DNA of 64,000 nucleotides from a virus. The stretch lies in IMG/VR virus record IMGVR_UViG_3300031541_000012, positions 1 to 64,000 of that record; one strand, 5' to 3'. Positions 45,130 to 55,478 of the stretch are shown here, in pieces. Positions within the stretch are counted from its first letter, which is position 1. The number at the start of each line of letters is the position of its first letter. The notes under the pieces are model-generated. The model ran no database searches and was not told the DNA's origin. It worked only from the letters and a program-made list of their open reading frames with translations. The translations under genes were made by a program, and so were the position numbers.

Positions 45130-45758
45130 ACCCTTTCAAGGTTTTAAACATAAACCCCACGGATGACAAAATGACCATCCGTCGCGCGTATGTACGTGAA
45201 GCAAAGTTGCACCATCCTGACCAGGGTGGTGACGAAGGGCATTTCCGCCTTATACAAAAAGCGTATGAGGGATTGATCAACAATGATTTTGATGTAGAGA
45301 TCCTAGAAACAGATGTTGCATTGGACCTCAAGGACTTTTTACTTGGATGTACAGCGGTTGCAGTAATCAAGAACGGCGTGTTCAAAGGCACTGCAATTGA
45401 GTTCAAAGTGCCAGCGTACACATACCCTGGTACAGTGCTAGAGTTTCACGACTCTGGATTGACAGACAAGCTCGTTCGTGTTAAATTATTTGAAGCTAAA
45501 CAAGATCACTACACGAGGCTTGGATCAAGCATAGTCTCCAAGCATAAAATAAATATGCTTGAGGCAGAACTCGGCAAAGAAATCGAAGTAACGAACTTCG
45601 ACGATAAATCATATAAAATAAGAGTATCGCCAGAGACCACCGCAGATCGTTTGATCTATAATTTTGAAGGTGCAGGTTTTTACGACAAGCTAACGAAAGT
45701 CCGTGGTAATTTCACGGTCGTAGTAGAAGTAGACAAGAGAAGGTTATTTGATGTCTGA
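45126..45758 (+). CDS. DnaJ-domain co-chaperone
   Basis: NPFKVL, IRRAY, HHPD, DnaJ C-terminal-like region. Confidence 0.85.
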   Translation: MNPFKVLNINPTDDKMTIRRAYVREAKLHHPDQGGDEGHFRLIQKAYEGLINNDFDVEILETDVALDLKDFLLGCTAVAVIKNGVFKGTAIEFKVPAYTYPGTVLEFHDSGLTDKLVRVKLFEAKQDHYTRLGSSIVSKHKINMLEAELGKEIEVTNFDDKSYKIRVSPETTADRLIYNFEGAGFYDKLTKVRGNFTVVVEVDKRRLFDV

Positions 45759-47985
45759 AGAGAGATTACAGCGCATTGTGCAGATGGCATTTCAAGAAGC
45801 AATTAGCCGTCAACATGAATATGTGACGATTGAACATTTGCTTATTGCAATCCTAGGCGATGCAGATATTCTCCAAGTCCTAGAGGACATGGGTATAAGC
45901 AGCCAAAGCATTCTTGATGATGCTAAAGATTATTTAGATACAGATATCGAAAAAATGGCTGACCAAAGCAATGGTGCGAAAAAGACTGTTGCACTAGAGC
46001 GCGTGTTCCAACGTGCGGTTGCGCAAGGCTACTTTGTTGGCCGCTCAATTGCAGATCCGCTAGACGTGTTGGGCAGTATCCTCTCAGAGGAAAACAGCCA
46101 CGCCGCTTTCTTTTGTAACACCCACGGCCTCACAAAAGACTCACTGACTGAAAATATTGCAGACATCATTCAAGATGATGGCATGGCAACTACCAACGGT
46201 GAAGAAGCGCCAACAGGACGCCGTAAGCGCCAAACTGCACTTGAGCAGTATTGTGTCAACCTCAATGAGCTGGCAGAAGAAGGCAAGGTGGACGATCTCA
46301 TTGGACGTGATTGGGAAGTGGAAAGCCTTGTGCAGACACTTGCCCGCCGTAAAAAGAACAACGCTATGATGGTTGGTGATCCTGGTGTTGGTAAAACTGC
46401 AATTGCAGAGGGACTTGCCAAGCGCATCATTGAAGAAGATGTCCCTGAGACAATGCTTGGTAAAACTATCTACAGCCTGGATATTGGCTTGCTACTAGCA
46501 GGCAGCAAATATCGCGGAGACATGGAGGAACGCCTCAAGGACGTTCTCAAAGAGCTCGAGACTAAAGAGAACAGCATCCTCTTTATCGATGAGATCCATA
46601 TGATCCTTGGAGCAGGGGCGGGCGGCAACAGTGCAATGGATGTTGCAAACTTGCTCAAGCCAGCTCTACAGCGCGGAACGCTGCGTTGTATTGGTTCCAC
46701 AACCGTGGAAGAGTTCCAAGAAAAGATCGAAAAGGATGCAGCACTCAAGCGACGTTTTGAGCGTGTTAACGTAACTGAGCCAAGTGTTGAGGATGCAAAG
46801 GCGATCCTCATCAACAGTATGCCAGCTTACGAACTATTCCACAACATGGGTATTGACAAAGAGGCAGTTGAAGCCGCTGTTGAACTCAGTGTCAAGTATA
46901 TCCATAACAAACGACTACCAGACAAAGCCTTCGACTTGGTTGACAGTGCTTTTGCCCGCCAGCGTACATACCCAGACGAACAACAGGTAGACGTTATCAC
47001 TAAGAATTTGATTGAGCGCGAAGCATCACGCCTAAGCCGTATCCCGCTCAGCATCATCACAACAAACGACGAAACATCAGAAGAGGTACACGACATTGAA
47101 GCCGGTCTACAGCTAACAGTATTTGGCCAAAACCCAGCAGTGGAAACACTTGCTAGTGCTGTTTACGTCGCACAGTCAGGATTGAACGATCCTGAAAAGC
47201 CGCTAGGCTGTTACCTGTTTACTGGACCAACTGGTGTTGGTAAAACAGAAACTGCAATTGGCCTCGCTAACCTACTGGGTGTCAAGCTTGTGCGTTTTGA
47301 CATGGGTGAGTTCATGGAGAAGCACACAGTGAGCCGCCTTATTGGTAGTCCTCCAGGCTATGTAGGATATGGTGATGGTAAAGCCGGTGCTGGTGAGCTT
47401 ATCACTGAGATTGAGAATAATCCTAATTGTGTCCTGCTATTGGACGAGGTCGAGAAAGCACACGAAGACGTGCTCAACGTACTCTTGTCACTGATGAGCA
47501 CAGGCATGATATCCAATAGCAGCGGTAAAGAGGTCAATGCTAAAAACATTATCCTTATCATGACCAGCAACCTTGGTGCAGCAGATGCAGAAAGAAACAA
47601 GATTGGTTTCGGTGCTACTGACAACACTGATGCAAGTACAGAAGCCGTCAAGCGTTTCTTTACACCTGAATTCCGTAACCGCCTAGACGCCGTGGTGCCA
47701 TTTAGCAAGCTTGACAAAGAAATTGTTATGCAGGTTGCAGACAAGTTCCTCAAGGTTGTTAAGGAGAGCGCAGCAGAGCGCGGCTACAAACTAAAGTGGA
47801 ACAAGAGTGTCCTCAAATGGCTCAGCCAGGACGGGCGTGGATTCGATCCTGCGATGGGAGCAAGACCAATGAAGCGGGCAATCTTCGATCACATCAAGAA
47901 GCCCCTTGCAAGGCAGATGTTGTTTGGTAGCGTTGACAAGACGATTACCCTAAAGATTGAGGATGACGAAATTAAATTCCAGTGA
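45751..47985 (+). CDS. clpA: ATP-dependent Clp protease ATPase subunit
   Basis: Clp N domain HEYVTIEHLL, two AAA modules (GDPGVGKT, GPTGVGKTE), no middle coiled coil. Confidence 0.92.
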   Translation: MSEERLQRIVQMAFQEAISRQHEYVTIEHLLIAILGDADILQVLEDMGISSQSILDDAKDYLDTDIEKMADQSNGAKKTVALERVFQRAVAQGYFVGRSIADPLDVLGSILSEENSHAAFFCNTHGLTKDSLTENIADIIQDDGMATTNGEEAPTGRRKRQTALEQYCVNLNELAEEGKVDDLIGRDWEVESLVQTLARRKKNNAMMVGDPGVGKTAIAEGLAKRIIEEDVPETMLGKTIYSLDIGLLLAGSKYRGDMEERLKDVLKELETKENSILFIDEIHMILGAGAGGNSAMDVANLLKPALQRGTLRCIGSTTVEEFQEKIEKDAALKRRFERVNVTEPSVEDAKAILINSMPAYELFHNMGIDKEAVEAAVELSVKYIHNKRLPDKAFDLVDSAFARQRTYPDEQQVDVITKNLIEREASRLSRIPLSIITTNDETSEEVHDIEAGLQLTVFGQNPAVETLASAVYVAQSGLNDPEKPLGCYLFTGPTGVGKTETAIGLANLLGVKLVRFDMGEFMEKHTVSRLIGSPPGYVGYGDGKAGAGELITEIENNPNCVLLLDEVEKAHEDVLNVLLSLMSTGMISNSSGKEVNAKNIILIMTSNLGAADAERNKIGFGATDNTDASTEAVKRFFTPEFRNRLDAVVPFSKLDKEIVMQVADKFLKVVKESAAERGYKLKWNKSVLKWLSQDGRGFDPAMGARPMKRAIFDHIKKPLARQMLFGSVDKTITLKIEDDEIKFQ

Positions 47986-49573: not shown

Positions 49574-49927
49574 GTGCAGGAGGATAACGTGAATAGAAAC
49601 GGATGGTTCTGGTTAGCACCAGAATATTTCAACAGGTGGAGAGTATTTCCACGCGCCTTTATTGTATTTTATTTTTGGCTATGTATGGAAACAGCAATGT
49701 GGTTTATGGGCTTACCTAATCCAGGAGCCGCCCAAGCTGCATTTGCTAGTGCAATTATCTCTGCAGGTGCTGCCTGGTTTGGCTTATATGTAAACAGTGG
49801 TTCATTTAACTCTCGTGCATCAACACCACCGACAGCAGTACAGCAACCGCAGCCAGTTGTTATGCCGCCACCAGTACAAACAGAAACTGACCCTCGCGGC
49901 GTCAAGGAATATCAGGTAAAGGGCTAA
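49574..49927 (+). CDS. two-TM late membrane protein (holin candidate)
   Basis: TAAATA 49541; WRVFPR then two TM helices. Confidence 0.5.
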   Translation: MQEDNVNRNGWFWLAPEYFNRWRVFPRAFIVFYFWLCMETAMWFMGLPNPGAAQAAFASAIISAGAAWFGLYVNSGSFNSRASTPPTAVQQPQPVVMPPPVQTETDPRGVKEYQVKG

Positions 49928-50493
49928 TGAGCGAACACTACATGCGTCTGCTTACAGACGTTGAGCTTAATCCAAAGCAAAAGCAAACGTGGTATCGTGT
50001 GGTCGAGAAGTTTCTAGGTGCAGAATATGCAACACAGCCTACAAACTTTCTCGACACACTTACCAGCCAACGCGCTGAACTAGAGGGGGACGAAAACTTC
50101 CCTTACGTCTACGTTGTTTACCTAAGTGACGATATTGATGCTACTCTTGCAGAACAGATTGTTGCACTATGGAACAAGATCTATCCACGTGACTTTGAGA
50201 TTGAAAGCAGTGCTGAGTATGATGCTGATTGTTGTGACCATTGCGCCGTTGAGATCGACGATGCGATGCACGAAGAGATCCAACGTCGTGCTAGCAAGTT
50301 CCTACACAACCGCTGGGTAGAAAGCCAAGTTGACGCTGGCTGGCGTTACGGCACAAGCATCAGCGAAAGCGATAAGACCAACCCACGTCTACGCGACTGG
50401 GATAGCTTGCATGAAGATTATCGCCGTGTCCTGGAAATGGACCGTGAGCAAGCTACTAAATTTTTCAAGACATATCCACACCTTTTTGTTTGA
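49927..50493 (+). CDS. RyR-domain protein
   Basis: LHNRWV.....GWRYG......KTNPRL..WD.L. Confidence 0.7.
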   Translation: MSEHYMRLLTDVELNPKQKQTWYRVVEKFLGAEYATQPTNFLDTLTSQRAELEGDENFPYVYVVYLSDDIDATLAEQIVALWNKIYPRDFEIESSAEYDADCCDHCAVEIDDAMHEEIQRRASKFLHNRWVESQVDAGWRYGTSISESDKTNPRLRDWDSLHEDYRRVLEMDREQATKFFKTYPHLFV

Positions 50494-51152: not shown

Positions 51153-52184
51153 ATGTTTGACCAATCCGTACAACGTGTAGGCTTTGCCTGCAAATATATG
51201 CATCCTGACCAGACACTTCCGCCCAAGAAGCTGAAGTCCATACAGGGTCGCATGACTGAGAGTGTTACTACCAATGCGTGGATGCAGCGCCAGACACACC
51301 GCGATGCCTACGACAAGCTGTGGACACTTATCCAGCACAACACACAAGCTGTTTACAATCTTATACAGTATGTTGGCGGCTTGCCTGCAGGACAGCGCAT
51401 GGTACGACTTGGCAGCGATCAGTTACCCTTCTACACACTTGACCCCTGGCGTGACTTCTACAAACGCAATGACGTTCGTAACTTTCTCGAGCGCCAGTAT
51501 ATACGTGCAGGCGATCTTGCGCGTGAGCATGACGTACGCCTATCCATGCACCCTGGTCAGTTTACAGTGCTAGCTAGCGACAATGACGATGTCGTTGAGC
51601 GCAGCCTAGAGGAGATGGAATACCACACTGACATTGCACGTTGGATGGGCTATGGCAACATGTTTGGTGAGTTCAAGATCAACGTACACCTTGCTGGCCG
51701 CCGTGGTGTTGACGGCTTCCGTGCTATACACAATCGCTTGTCGCCCGAGCTGCGCAACATGATGACTGTGGAGAATGACGAGTATGCTAGCGGGCTTGAC
51801 GACATTATCCAGCTTGCTGACGACTTTGCACTTGTATTTGACACACATCATCACTGGATACACAGCAACGAGTTTATCGCACCTGACGACGACCGCTTCC
51901 AGCGTGTTATCGAGTCCTGGCGTGGTGTGCGTCCTGCAATGCACTATTCTGTATCGCGAGTCGAGTACCTGGCTGACGTTGACGACGCCACACTGCCCGA
52001 CCGTGACTTGCTCAAGGAGGCTGGCTATGCTAGCAACAAACTACGTGCACATTCGGACCTCTATACACATACAGCCAGCAACGACATGATTGCTGCATTT
52101 TGGCCACATGCTGACATTATGGCCGAAGCCAAGCACAAGAACCTAGCGAGTACTGCGCTATACAACTATCTTATGGAGAACTGA
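51153..52184 (+). CDS. uvsE: UV damage endonuclease
   Basis: RVGFACK, RLSMHPGQF.VLAS, VEND, FD.HHH, HYS, AHSD, M.EAK.K. Confidence 0.93.
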   Translation: MFDQSVQRVGFACKYMHPDQTLPPKKLKSIQGRMTESVTTNAWMQRQTHRDAYDKLWTLIQHNTQAVYNLIQYVGGLPAGQRMVRLGSDQLPFYTLDPWRDFYKRNDVRNFLERQYIRAGDLAREHDVRLSMHPGQFTVLASDNDDVVERSLEEMEYHTDIARWMGYGNMFGEFKINVHLAGRRGVDGFRAIHNRLSPELRNMMTVENDEYASGLDDIIQLADDFALVFDTHHHWIHSNEFIAPDDDRFQRVIESWRGVRPAMHYSVSRVEYLADVDDATLPDRDLLKEAGYASNKLRAHSDLYTHTASNDMIAAFWPHADIMAEAKHKNLASTALYNYLMEN

Positions 52185-53113: not shown

Positions 53114-53135
53114 CAGCTCTCCGATAAATATCGAT

Positions 53136-53202
53136 AGTTCAGTAGTGCCCGCAAGGGACTTATGGGGACCCACCCCGTAGCGGCTAGAACCTGCATTGGA
53201 CT
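53136..53202 (+). ncRNA. perfect four-way-junction 5' leader RNA
   Basis: P1 53136-43/53195-202; P2 53144-60 (GCAA loop); P3 53161-79; P4 53180-94; starts 5 nt after TAAATA 53125-53130. Confidence 0.7.
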
Positions 53203-53220
53203 TCTATTAAGGAGAAAACA

Positions 53221-53817
53221 ATGGGTAGACCTATTAACAAACGCTTTATTGGTGATAATCCAGGAAGCATCAAAGTTTCACATCACTTCCGTGTTGGTGA
53301 AAGTGAAGTAGCAGGTGGCGATGACACATACATCGTTAGCCAGCGCTCAAATACAAAATTCCTAATTTCAGACACATCAGAAGGCTGGAGCGAAGTTCTC
53401 GTGCTAGCTGACAAAGATGCAGGCTCACTTGCAGAAGGCGAGTTCCGCATTGCAGCAACTGATGAACTAGGTGCAGACGTAAACGCAATCCGCCTTTATA
53501 ACCGTACAATACGTGTCACAGGTCCTAAGAAGGTTAAGTGGAGCATTGATGCACCTGAGTCACAGGCAATCACAGGCATCACCCAAGCTGATCCAGCAGT
53601 TGTTACAGTTGCAGACACATCAGTTTACAATGACGGCGACACTGTTACAATCAGTGGTGTTGTTGGTATGACTGAGATCAACGGCCTCAGCAGCACAATT
53701 ACCATTCTTAATGCAACAACCTTTGAGCTCGACACAATTGACTCAACAGGCTTTACTGCATACACAAGCGGCGGTACAGTAAGTGTTGGCGGAAGCATTG
53801 ACGACCAAGACGCATAA
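53221..53817 (+). CDS. late structural protein with C-terminal E1-FCCH-like beta domain
   Basis: MGRPINKRF N-terminus; ITGITQADPAVVT...GDTVTISGVVGMTEING. Confidence 0.7.
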   Translation: MGRPINKRFIGDNPGSIKVSHHFRVGESEVAGGDDTYIVSQRSNTKFLISDTSEGWSEVLVLADKDAGSLAEGEFRIAATDELGADVNAIRLYNRTIRVTGPKKVKWSIDAPESQAITGITQADPAVVTVADTSVYNDGDTVTISGVVGMTEINGLSSTITILNATTFELDTIDSTGFTAYTSGGTVSVGGSIDDQDA

Positions 53818-53839: not shown

Positions 53840-53885
53840 ATGAAAACCCTGTCGCTGCTAAATATAATAAAGGCAGGGTTTTCAT
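53840..53885 (+). promoter_or_regulatory. late promoter inside 12-bp hairpin abutting start codon
   Basis: ATGAAAACCCTG/CAGGGTTTTCAT around TAAATA 53859. Confidence 0.75.
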
Positions 53886-55478
53886 ATGACAATCACCAAA
53901 GCACAACTCAATAATCTTGAGCAAGCAGCTGACAAAGTATTTGGCAAACTAGGACTCGATATTGAGTTTACACGACATTTCCTTGACAGAGCAAACGACG
54001 AACGCAACAGCAAGCCGATCACAATCAAAGAGCTGGCTGAATTATTCGTAAAAGAGTACAGGCGTTGGGGCAACAAAATCGCAAAGATGGACTTTGACGC
54101 CGAAGCAGTCATGAAAGACCTCACTAGCCAGATTAACATTCCATTTGTTATCAATCCAGATGGCAACGGAAAAGACCTAGTAGCGAAAACAGTTATGCGT
54201 AAAAAGAATTTCACATCACCAGATCCAACACTTCCAGTAGAAAGTGTAACCGAATCACGTGACTTGTGGTACTTACTAGTTGACGGCGATGAATACAATG
54301 AGTGGGGCACTGGTTCAGTGATTGGCACTAAAAACGAAATGGGTAAATTTGCTAAAAAAATTCGACGAGAATACAGAAAAGAAAATGGACGTGATCCAGA
54401 TATTATGTTTGTACGAGCAGAGCCAAAACGAATTAAAAAACTACGACCGCATAAAAGCGTCAATGAAGAAGGACACGATAAAAACCTTTACTATGTTCAA
54501 CCAGATGGCGAATGGAAAAAGGGTGGCGATGGTCGTTCAAAAGGCCGCAAGCGCAAGAACATTCCCAAGGGAGCAAAAATCGTGGAAAGGAAAGTAAAAG
54601 AAGACAGCGTTTGCTGGGATGGATACGAAAAGGTACCAGGCAAGAAGGACTACGAAAAAGGTAGTTGCCGCAAAAAGAACAAAAACGAAAATAGTTATCC
54701 CAAACCTATTTCAGGGAGAGATATTACAGACTCTGTAACCCAAGCAAATGTAAAAGTTCTTGGGCAAAGCGTCAAAGAAGAAAAGCATGGTGCGAAAAAA
54801 GGCACACAAGCTAAAGGCAAATCACCTACACCAAAGAAAAGCCGTCCAACAGCAGGTAGTGAAACACCACACCCAATGCGTGGTAAGCTAGTTGGCGAAA
54901 ATGCAAAGCTAACTGAGCGCTGGAAGCATAATATCTGGGGCGGTGAGACGGCAGACGGTGTTAAATTTAAGGTTGATAAACTTCAAGGTAAAAATCCGCG
55001 TTATCTTGTTCGCTACAATAATGATGATAAGGCAGAGTTTGACAATCTTATGGTTTATTACGATGATTTTGACACCGTAATGGACATTGTCAACCAAAAC
55101 TTTGATGCTGCCGTTGCTGGTGGTGAAAAGTTCCGTCGCACTGGACGCACAGCACACAAAGGCAGCTATGAATTCATTAAGCCCGTCCGTGAATCACTTA
55201 CTCTTGAAGAACAATGCCTACTGCAAAAAGGTGCATGGGAAGTAGAGCAGATCCGTAACTCAGTAACCGAAGCAATTCGTGATCCACGTGAACTTATCCT
55301 TCAAAAGGCATTGGAATATTTAGACAAGATGGTCGCAAGCCGTGGCAGCAAGCAAGACGTTGGCGGTTATGCATTTGACATTGCCCGCAGTTTTGACCTA
55401 CGTGATATTGCAACTGCAAAAGAGCTAGCCGACATGTACCATGAATGGAAGGGCATCAAGCCCCATGCGCTACGCTGA
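53886..55478 (+). CDS. modular lysine-rich protein, putative internal head polyprotein
   Basis: modules separated by SVTE, SVNE, KVKE, SVKE, KLTE, PVRE; N-terminal FTRHFLDR module. Confidence 0.6.
   Translation: MTITKAQLNNLEQAADKVFGKLGLDIEFTRHFLDRANDERNSKPITIKELAELFVKEYRRWGNKIAKMDFDAEAVMKDLTSQINIPFVINPDGNGKDLVAKTVMRKKNFTSPDPTLPVESVTESRDLWYLLVDGDEYNEWGTGSVIGTKNEMGKFAKKIRREYRKENGRDPDIMFVRAEPKRIKKLRPHKSVNEEGHDKNLYYVQPDGEWKKGGDGRSKGRKRKNIPKGAKIVERKVKEDSVCWDGYEKVPGKKDYEKGSCRKKNKNENSYPKPISGRDITDSVTQANVKVLGQSVKEEKHGAKKGTQAKGKSPTPKKSRPTAGSETPHPMRGKLVGENAKLTERWKHNIWGGETADGVKFKVDKLQGKNPRYLVRYNNDDKAEFDNLMVYYDDFDTVMDIVNQNFDAAVAGGEKFRRTGRTAHKGSYEFIKPVRESLTLEEQCLLQKGAWEVEQIRNSVTEAIRDPRELILQKALEYLDKMVASRGSKQDVGGYAFDIARSFDLRDIATAKELADMYHEWKGIKPHALR

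Follow-up and report, generated by a model that had tools for sequence, protein, structure and literature searches.

In Escherichia coli, the leader of rpsO forms a pseudoknot that loops out the Shine-Dalgarno sequence (SD), and excess S15 represses translation (PMC3985624). A leader pseudoknot of phage T4 gene 32 was proposed to serve feedback by gp32, and a review from 2010 regarded it as possibly the sole viral autoregulatory pseudoknot then known (PMC3014915). The RNA described here lies in a window of viral DNA, by which we mean the whole stretch of 64,000 nucleotides that was analysed, and is a further copy of freshwater-2, a catalogued RNA motif without known function. Freshwater-2 reportedly stems from the 224-motif screen of Weinberg et al. 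in 2017. The motif is not named in the main text of PMC5737381, the supplement of which may already describe genes or pairings given here. It is not discussed in the available part of PMC10690425, and the literature searched contained no functional study of freshwater-2 or its Rfam entry RF02980. As a discovery the copy is modest, since the motif was already catalogued. The locus provides the orphan motif with a context: a late leader, a probable virion-protein gene, T4-like jumbo phages and, usually, a neighboring capsid gene. It also adds a subclade-specific helix, the rejection of one proposed pairing (TAGAA with TTCTA), and moderate support for pairing with the start-codon region.

The Rfam covariance model of freshwater-2 (RF02980, type Cis-reg) matches positions 53144–53223 of the window with a score of 59.5 bits, above the gathering cut-off of 49.9 bits, and an E-value of 1.6e-06. 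The match spans the full length of the model (positions 1–84 of 84) and is the sole Rfam match at the gathering level in the window, which contains no Rfam match to a riboswitch family. The RF02980 alignment comprises three adjacent hairpins, a UAUG/CGUA stem base and a CUAGAAC loop, followed by the SD and AUG. The first-pass annotation of this DNA had not recognised the RNA as a named family and had stated that a match to a described Rfam motif would make it not novel; the Rfam scan that it proposed returned such a match, and the element is not a new family. The Rfam model begins at hairpin P2 and draws neither the closing helix P1, which is added by the subclade of the window, nor a start-codon contact. 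Two of five complete genomes searched hold freshwater-2 members that score under the Rfam cut-off, and the family is therefore wider than the model. At loci L394, L397, L400, L406, L411, L415, L391, L398 and L416, the family has diverged: the base of P3 is altered (TTATTGCGG, TTCGCGG or a bulged nucleotide), and the RNA stands ahead of MAR, MAK, MAN or MAS genes. Locus L390, from the same search, scores under the Rfam cut-off.

All parts of the element are on the plus strand. TAAATA at 53125–53130 is the predicted core of a late promoter. The 5′ strand of P1 (53136–53143), which probably begins at the transcription start, pairs with the 3′ strand (53195–53202) through eight base pairs, two of which are G·U. 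P1 encloses three hairpins without linker bases. P2 (53144–53160) has a bulged G and a GCAA loop and is variable in the family. P3 (53161–53179) has a near-invariant UAUG/CGUA base and the loop ACCCA (53168–53172). P4 (53180–53194) carries the loop CTAGAAC (53184–53190) with UAGAA at 53185–53189. TTCTA (53202–53206) overlaps the last base of P1 and a possible weak hairpin, CUUCU/AGGAG (53201–53214), which covers the SD AGGAG (53210–53214) and shares two bases with P1. The start ATG is at 53221. TAAATA, the four linker-free helices, TTCTA and the SD were all found in the sequence as the first-pass annotation had described them.

The four-way fold is both the minimum free energy and the centroid structure of positions 53136–53202 (67 nt, −24.5 kcal/mol). 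Its stability does not exceed chance (z −1.5; 17/200 and 80/1000 shuffles fold as well), and folding energy was rejected as proof of the element on this ground. A linker-free four-way junction arises in one of 1000 shuffles. With the SD region included, the pair probabilities of P1 drop to about 0.4 (to 53223) or about 0.7 (to 53240), and P1 competes with the CUUCU/AGGAG hairpin. The hairpins are judged to be real because of the comparison with relatives.

Relatives were collected with a protein profile, regardless of whether they carry the RNA (protein-first loci; best 80 of 321 and best 80 of 353 confirmed). Among the matches listed, the freshwater-2 core is present in 98 of 109 distinct full-length protein-first leaders, and 97 of these 98 keep UAGAA. 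The 11 core-less leaders among the matches listed comprise eight downstream paralogs of an RNA-led gene, one unrelated short ORF, and loci L340 and L363, the latter of which also holds another RNA-led start. Pairing was counted in the 95 distinct protein-first elements with a promoter among the matches listed. In this set, P4 comprises 33 different stems with 310 of 334 cells paired, and P3 exhibits C-G/G-C and G-C/A-U/U-A swaps. The leaders of MGRP-starting homologs, to which the first-pass annotation had pointed as the place to look for covariation, thus covary strongly in P3 and P4. P2 is shrunk to a few bases in loci L218 and L341. The distance from the end of P4 to AUG is 12–29 nt in 95/95 unique elements among the matches listed. 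At locus L065, the RNA is intact and the expected start is ATC instead of ATG, reflecting a sequencing error or a dead gene.

The 159-kb fragment G000 and all five complete genomes (5/5) each hold one strong copy of the RNA. Some loci have tandem runs of up to three paralogous MGRP-family genes (L289:1584-3490; L290:2501-3780; L320; L325; L222; L227), and in these the RNA precedes the first gene only. Atu_ph07 gp498 (L206:4016-4996), its counterpart in phage Phosso (L377:1201-1905) and metagenome locus L340 possess TAAATA and the gene without the RNA, and therefore serve as natural controls; the first two are from cultured soil and creek phages. Because these three keep the MGRP arm, RNA binding cannot be read from the basic N-terminus. 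Searches with blastn and tblastn found no cultured phage carrying the RNA. Four GTDB bins of unrelated taxa hold the gene together with the RNA; they look like binned phage contigs, and no host can be inferred from them.

Among the matches listed, 97 of 98 protein-first relatives have TAAATA ahead of the element, and in G000 it stands just upstream of many genes. The related jumbo phage CBB has ATAAATA as its predicted late promoter (PMC5259590). We infer a transcription start near 53136: the spacing from TAAATA would be that of T4, and 75 of 95 protein-first relatives among the matches listed have a purine at position 6 after TAAATA. In most relatives among the matches listed, a helix is predicted to begin 0–3 nt from the inferred start (median 1). 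P1-less relatives among the matches listed have a 5′ GTC and a GAC before UUAUG in 44 cases, neither in 16, and only one of the two in 14. Because GTC goes with GAC in these relatives, the 5′ end looks paired with or without P1. In P1-less members among the matches listed, the SD is predicted to be largely unpaired (median pairing 0.18). The relatives and the placement of TAAATA support the original proposal that the RNA is structured, probably acts in cis and opens a predicted late transcript.

The 3′ strand of P1 is present in 21 and absent from 74 of the 95 protein-first elements among the matches listed, and eight of the 21 form at least seven contiguous P1 pairs. In a fixed register, 7/7 pairs form in 6/21 protein-first elements among the matches listed and in 3/76 RNA-first elements. 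A hand-picked alignment of 32 sequences was assembled from 31 of 97 strand-bearing elements and L317, with the short-leader freshwater group and near-duplicates omitted. In this alignment, two-sided changes occur at three of eight P1 pairs, 78% of the P1 cells are paired (reached by 5/500 shuffles), and the covariation score is 0.209 versus 0.161 (0/500 shuffles). Measures that count pairs or types in the same alignment are not significant (263/500 and 299/500 shuffles), and RNAalifold retains just three P1 pairs. A cross-pairing control with 20 distinct strand pairs resulted in 119 versus 114.8 (152/10000). Locus L341 has kept P1 and lost P2, and of the nine best P1 cases, the window and L182 are the only two whose fold leaves no junction base unpaired. 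Given this support and its spread across relatives, P1 is probably real in the subclade of the window; the marine group has it in imperfect form, and most of the family lacks it. The perfect four-way junction of the first-pass annotation therefore stands as the minimum free energy fold of the window, with moderate support in its subclade, and does not extend to the family, as shown by the 74/95 elements among the matches listed that lack the closing strand.

The P3 loop of the window, ACCCA, is perfectly complementary to UGGGU (53222–53226) in the start region AUGGGU. CC is present in 52 of 60 distinct P3 loops among the matches listed, beyond what letter shuffles give (192 versus 162, 0/2000). 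The protein-first set, in which all starts are AUGGG, displays no covariation between loop and start (1275/2000 re-deals reach the observed value among the matches listed), and members with AUGGC starts were therefore added to the comparison. Among the matches listed, GCCA loops occur in 6/20 AUGGC versus 0/90 AUGGG combinations, and CCCA loops in 1/20 versus 31/90. Re-dealing the starts over the combined AUGGC and AUGGG set gives 380 versus 362 (0/3000, among the matches listed). Sixteen rows were left out of this comparison as unparsed; six of them are AUGGC, and three of those read GCCAA by eye. When proteins are clustered at 50% identity, such loops occur in 6/12 AUGGC versus 1/14 AUGGG clusters. 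At 40% identity all GCC-loop cases merge into one cluster, and the loop changes are therefore not proven to be independent. GCC is missing from 12/20 AUGGC loops and CC from 8/60 distinct loops among the matches listed. Taken as sequence comparison, these counts give moderate support to pairing of the P3 loop with the start-codon region, the loop shifting to GCCA in part of the members in which codon 2 becomes GCN. The P1-type members L315, L317, L341 and L210 have P3 loops without CC (ACATAA, ACAAAA, ACAGAA), which gives the impression that members with P1 and the SD hairpin have given up the start contact.

A T-loop is defined by a five-base U...A pair stacked on a Watson-Crick pair and followed by one to three bulged bases (PMC2615604, PMC6158498). 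UAGAA fits the five-base U...A pattern in 97/98 protein-first leaders among the matches listed. The base before UAGAA is C, A, U or G in 58, 20, 14 and 3 of 95 elements among the matches listed; in the window, no pairing partner compatible with P4 is available to it. By the definitions in these two sources, UAGAA could be a lone-pair triloop.

The gene behind the RNA (53221–53817, plus strand) encodes an MGRP-family protein of 198 amino acids with an N-terminal domain of about 110 residues and a C-terminal E1_FCCH-like β-domain. The N-terminal domain, modelled with a pLDDT of 89.5, is homologous to Atu_ph07 gp498 (probability 96.7, E-value 4.7e-10), and a 326-residue Atu_ph07 protein is the second-ranked Foldseek match (rmsd 2.5). 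A structure search with the full-length protein was filled with matches of the C-terminal domain. The N-terminal domain had no match as a single-sequence locus query, an Atlas search yielded no usable family, and a sequence search with the 198-residue protein matched no RNA-binding family. Atu_ph07 gp498, the mass of which was checked, is represented in the proteome of the phage particle by 23 peptides at a coverage of 75.5%; carry-over is possible because the virion preparation was PEG-purified (PMC6102473). A major capsid gene is located within the 2.5-kb flank in 115 of 160 protein-first loci among the matches listed. It is not near in close relatives with long flanks (L287, L289, L290, L315, L341, L244), and G000 has no capsid match. 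The 198-residue product is thus likely a virion surface protein, with a probable role at the capsid surface.

G000, the fragment of an uncultured giant phage that carries the element, is estimated to be 44% complete and encodes replication and baseplate proteins like those of T4. The closest matches of its large baseplate wedge protein (35–44% identity) are in jumbo phages of the Atu_ph07, XbC2, Munch and PA5oct type. Near the element are genes for a Clp-type ATPase (45748–47985, identified by eye from the translation), a RyR-domain protein (49927–50493) and a UvdE UV-endonuclease (51153–52184). Elsewhere, G000:C1:99700-133700 holds about 30 minus-strand genes, many of which encode 320–490 amino acids with CxxxW/CxxxCxxC-like starts; by eye, the block looks like a radical-SAM and glycosylation cluster.

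We hypothesize that freshwater-2 at this locus forms the 5′ leader of a late mRNA and controls its translation as an operator: the P3 loop would engage the start region, with a phage protein as the ligand; we estimate the probability of this reading at about one half. Sequence comparison provides its basis: the P3-P4 core, the fixed place between TAAATA and an MGRP-family gene, the single strong copy per genome, the confinement to the leading gene of tandem runs, and the shift of the loop with codon 2. The P3 loop would pair with the start-codon region through three to five base pairs. A contact of that size is too weak alone, and a ligand would therefore be needed as a clamp. The ligand might read the near-invariant UUAUG/CGUA and UAGAA and clamp the contact between loop and start, which would block or trap the 30S subunit. 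The likeliest ligand would be a phage late protein in unassembled excess, with the product of the gene itself as the first candidate, and such feedback would match the supply of this protein to that of the capsid. P1 would be a subclade add-on that pairs the 5′ end and competes with the weak SD hairpin.

The leader could instead be constitutive, protecting the 5′ end and enhancing translation of a high-copy protein without any switch. The predicted helix at the inferred start, the GTC/GAC association in P1-less relatives and the open SD of these members, all counted among the matches listed, fit this explanation. However, a plain stabiliser needs a stem rather than an invariant UAGAA, a conserved UUAUG/CGUA or a loop that tracks codon 2, and we regard it as doubtful. 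A host factor or a small molecule might also act through the same start-codon contact, as in a riboswitch. The compact core of several helices, in which loop and junction bases are invariant, and a start pairing so weak that it would need a stabiliser are compatible with that. Such an operator is nonetheless quite unlikely, as the RNA heads one probable virion-protein family and not metabolic genes among the matches listed, and is spread over marine and freshwater lineages, the hosts of which probably differ.

The first-pass annotation suggested that TAGAA of the P4 loop pairs with TTCTA; in a switch built on this, the pairing would free the SD, or P1 would alternate with the SD hairpin. The complementarity is present in the window, P1 and the SD hairpin have similar computed weights, and 15 of 21 protein-first P1-type members among the matches listed can form five pairs over the SD. 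Against this, TTCTA follows P4 in 3/95 and TTCT in 8/95 protein-first elements, whereas UAGAA is kept in 97/98 (among the matches listed), and no pair of TAGAA/TTCTA is altered on both sides among the relatives compared. In the close relatives L171, L289 and L291, TTC is changed to TCC, which breaks the pseudoknot and retains the SD hairpin. The TAGAA/TTCTA pseudoknot was thus rejected for the family. The SD hairpin likewise lacks two-sided covariation among relatives, because the SD hardly varies; confined to the P1 subclade, it was rejected as a conserved switch. Overall, a switch of either kind is very unlikely. A tRNA mimic or a processed stand-alone RNA, also raised in the first-pass annotation, is suggested by the length of 67 nt, the four helices and the 7-nt 3′ loop. 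ARAGORN found zero tRNA genes, no CCA end follows P1, and 14/95 elements among the matches listed have U where a tRNA has U54. The closing strand is absent in 74/95 elements among the matches listed, and P2 is reducible to a few bases. A processed RNA is further contradicted by the lack of a terminator at the end of the element and by the SD and AUG that follow close downstream in every element among the matches listed. Both forms are unsupported and exceedingly unlikely, and even the switch, mimic and processed RNA taken together are improbable.

Assembly feedback through the start-codon operator thus stays the leading idea. In its complete form, freshwater-2 would be a feedback operator of aquatic jumbo phages, in which an unassembled capsid-surface protein clamps a start-codon pseudoknot and one subclade adds a four-way junction; we advance this version tentatively. 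If the feedback is true, a virion protein of a tailed phage regulates its own translation via a folded RNA.

Among known systems, rpsO with S15 and T4 gene 32 are precedents for protein-stabilised pseudoknot operators, to which freshwater-2 may be compared by analogy. The likeness to rpsO concerns the way of working, and no homology is claimed: the ligand of rpsO is S15, whereas ligand and repression are putative in freshwater-2, and the pairing partner in freshwater-2 is the start region, unlike in rpsO. With T4 gene 32 it shares an RNA structure in a phage leader and a proposed feedback by the product of the gene. However, gp32 is a nucleic-acid-binding protein, whereas the freshwater-2 gene encodes a probable virion surface protein, and the gene 32 pseudoknot is located well upstream of the start, unlike the putative start-region contact of freshwater-2. 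The hairpins of the T4 e/soc type resemble freshwater-2 in that folded RNA sits where translation of a late gene begins, but their late promoter lies inside the hairpin, whereas the whole freshwater-2 element is downstream of its promoter (PMC3014915). The T4 e/soc design does occur at the gene that starts at 53886, next after the MGRP-family gene, and encodes 530 amino acids. A 14-bp hairpin at 53840–53885 (z −6.2, 0/200 shuffles) encloses TAAATA (53859) and extends to the ATG of this gene. A read-through mRNA would hide the start region, whereas a transcript that begins within the loop would leave it exposed.
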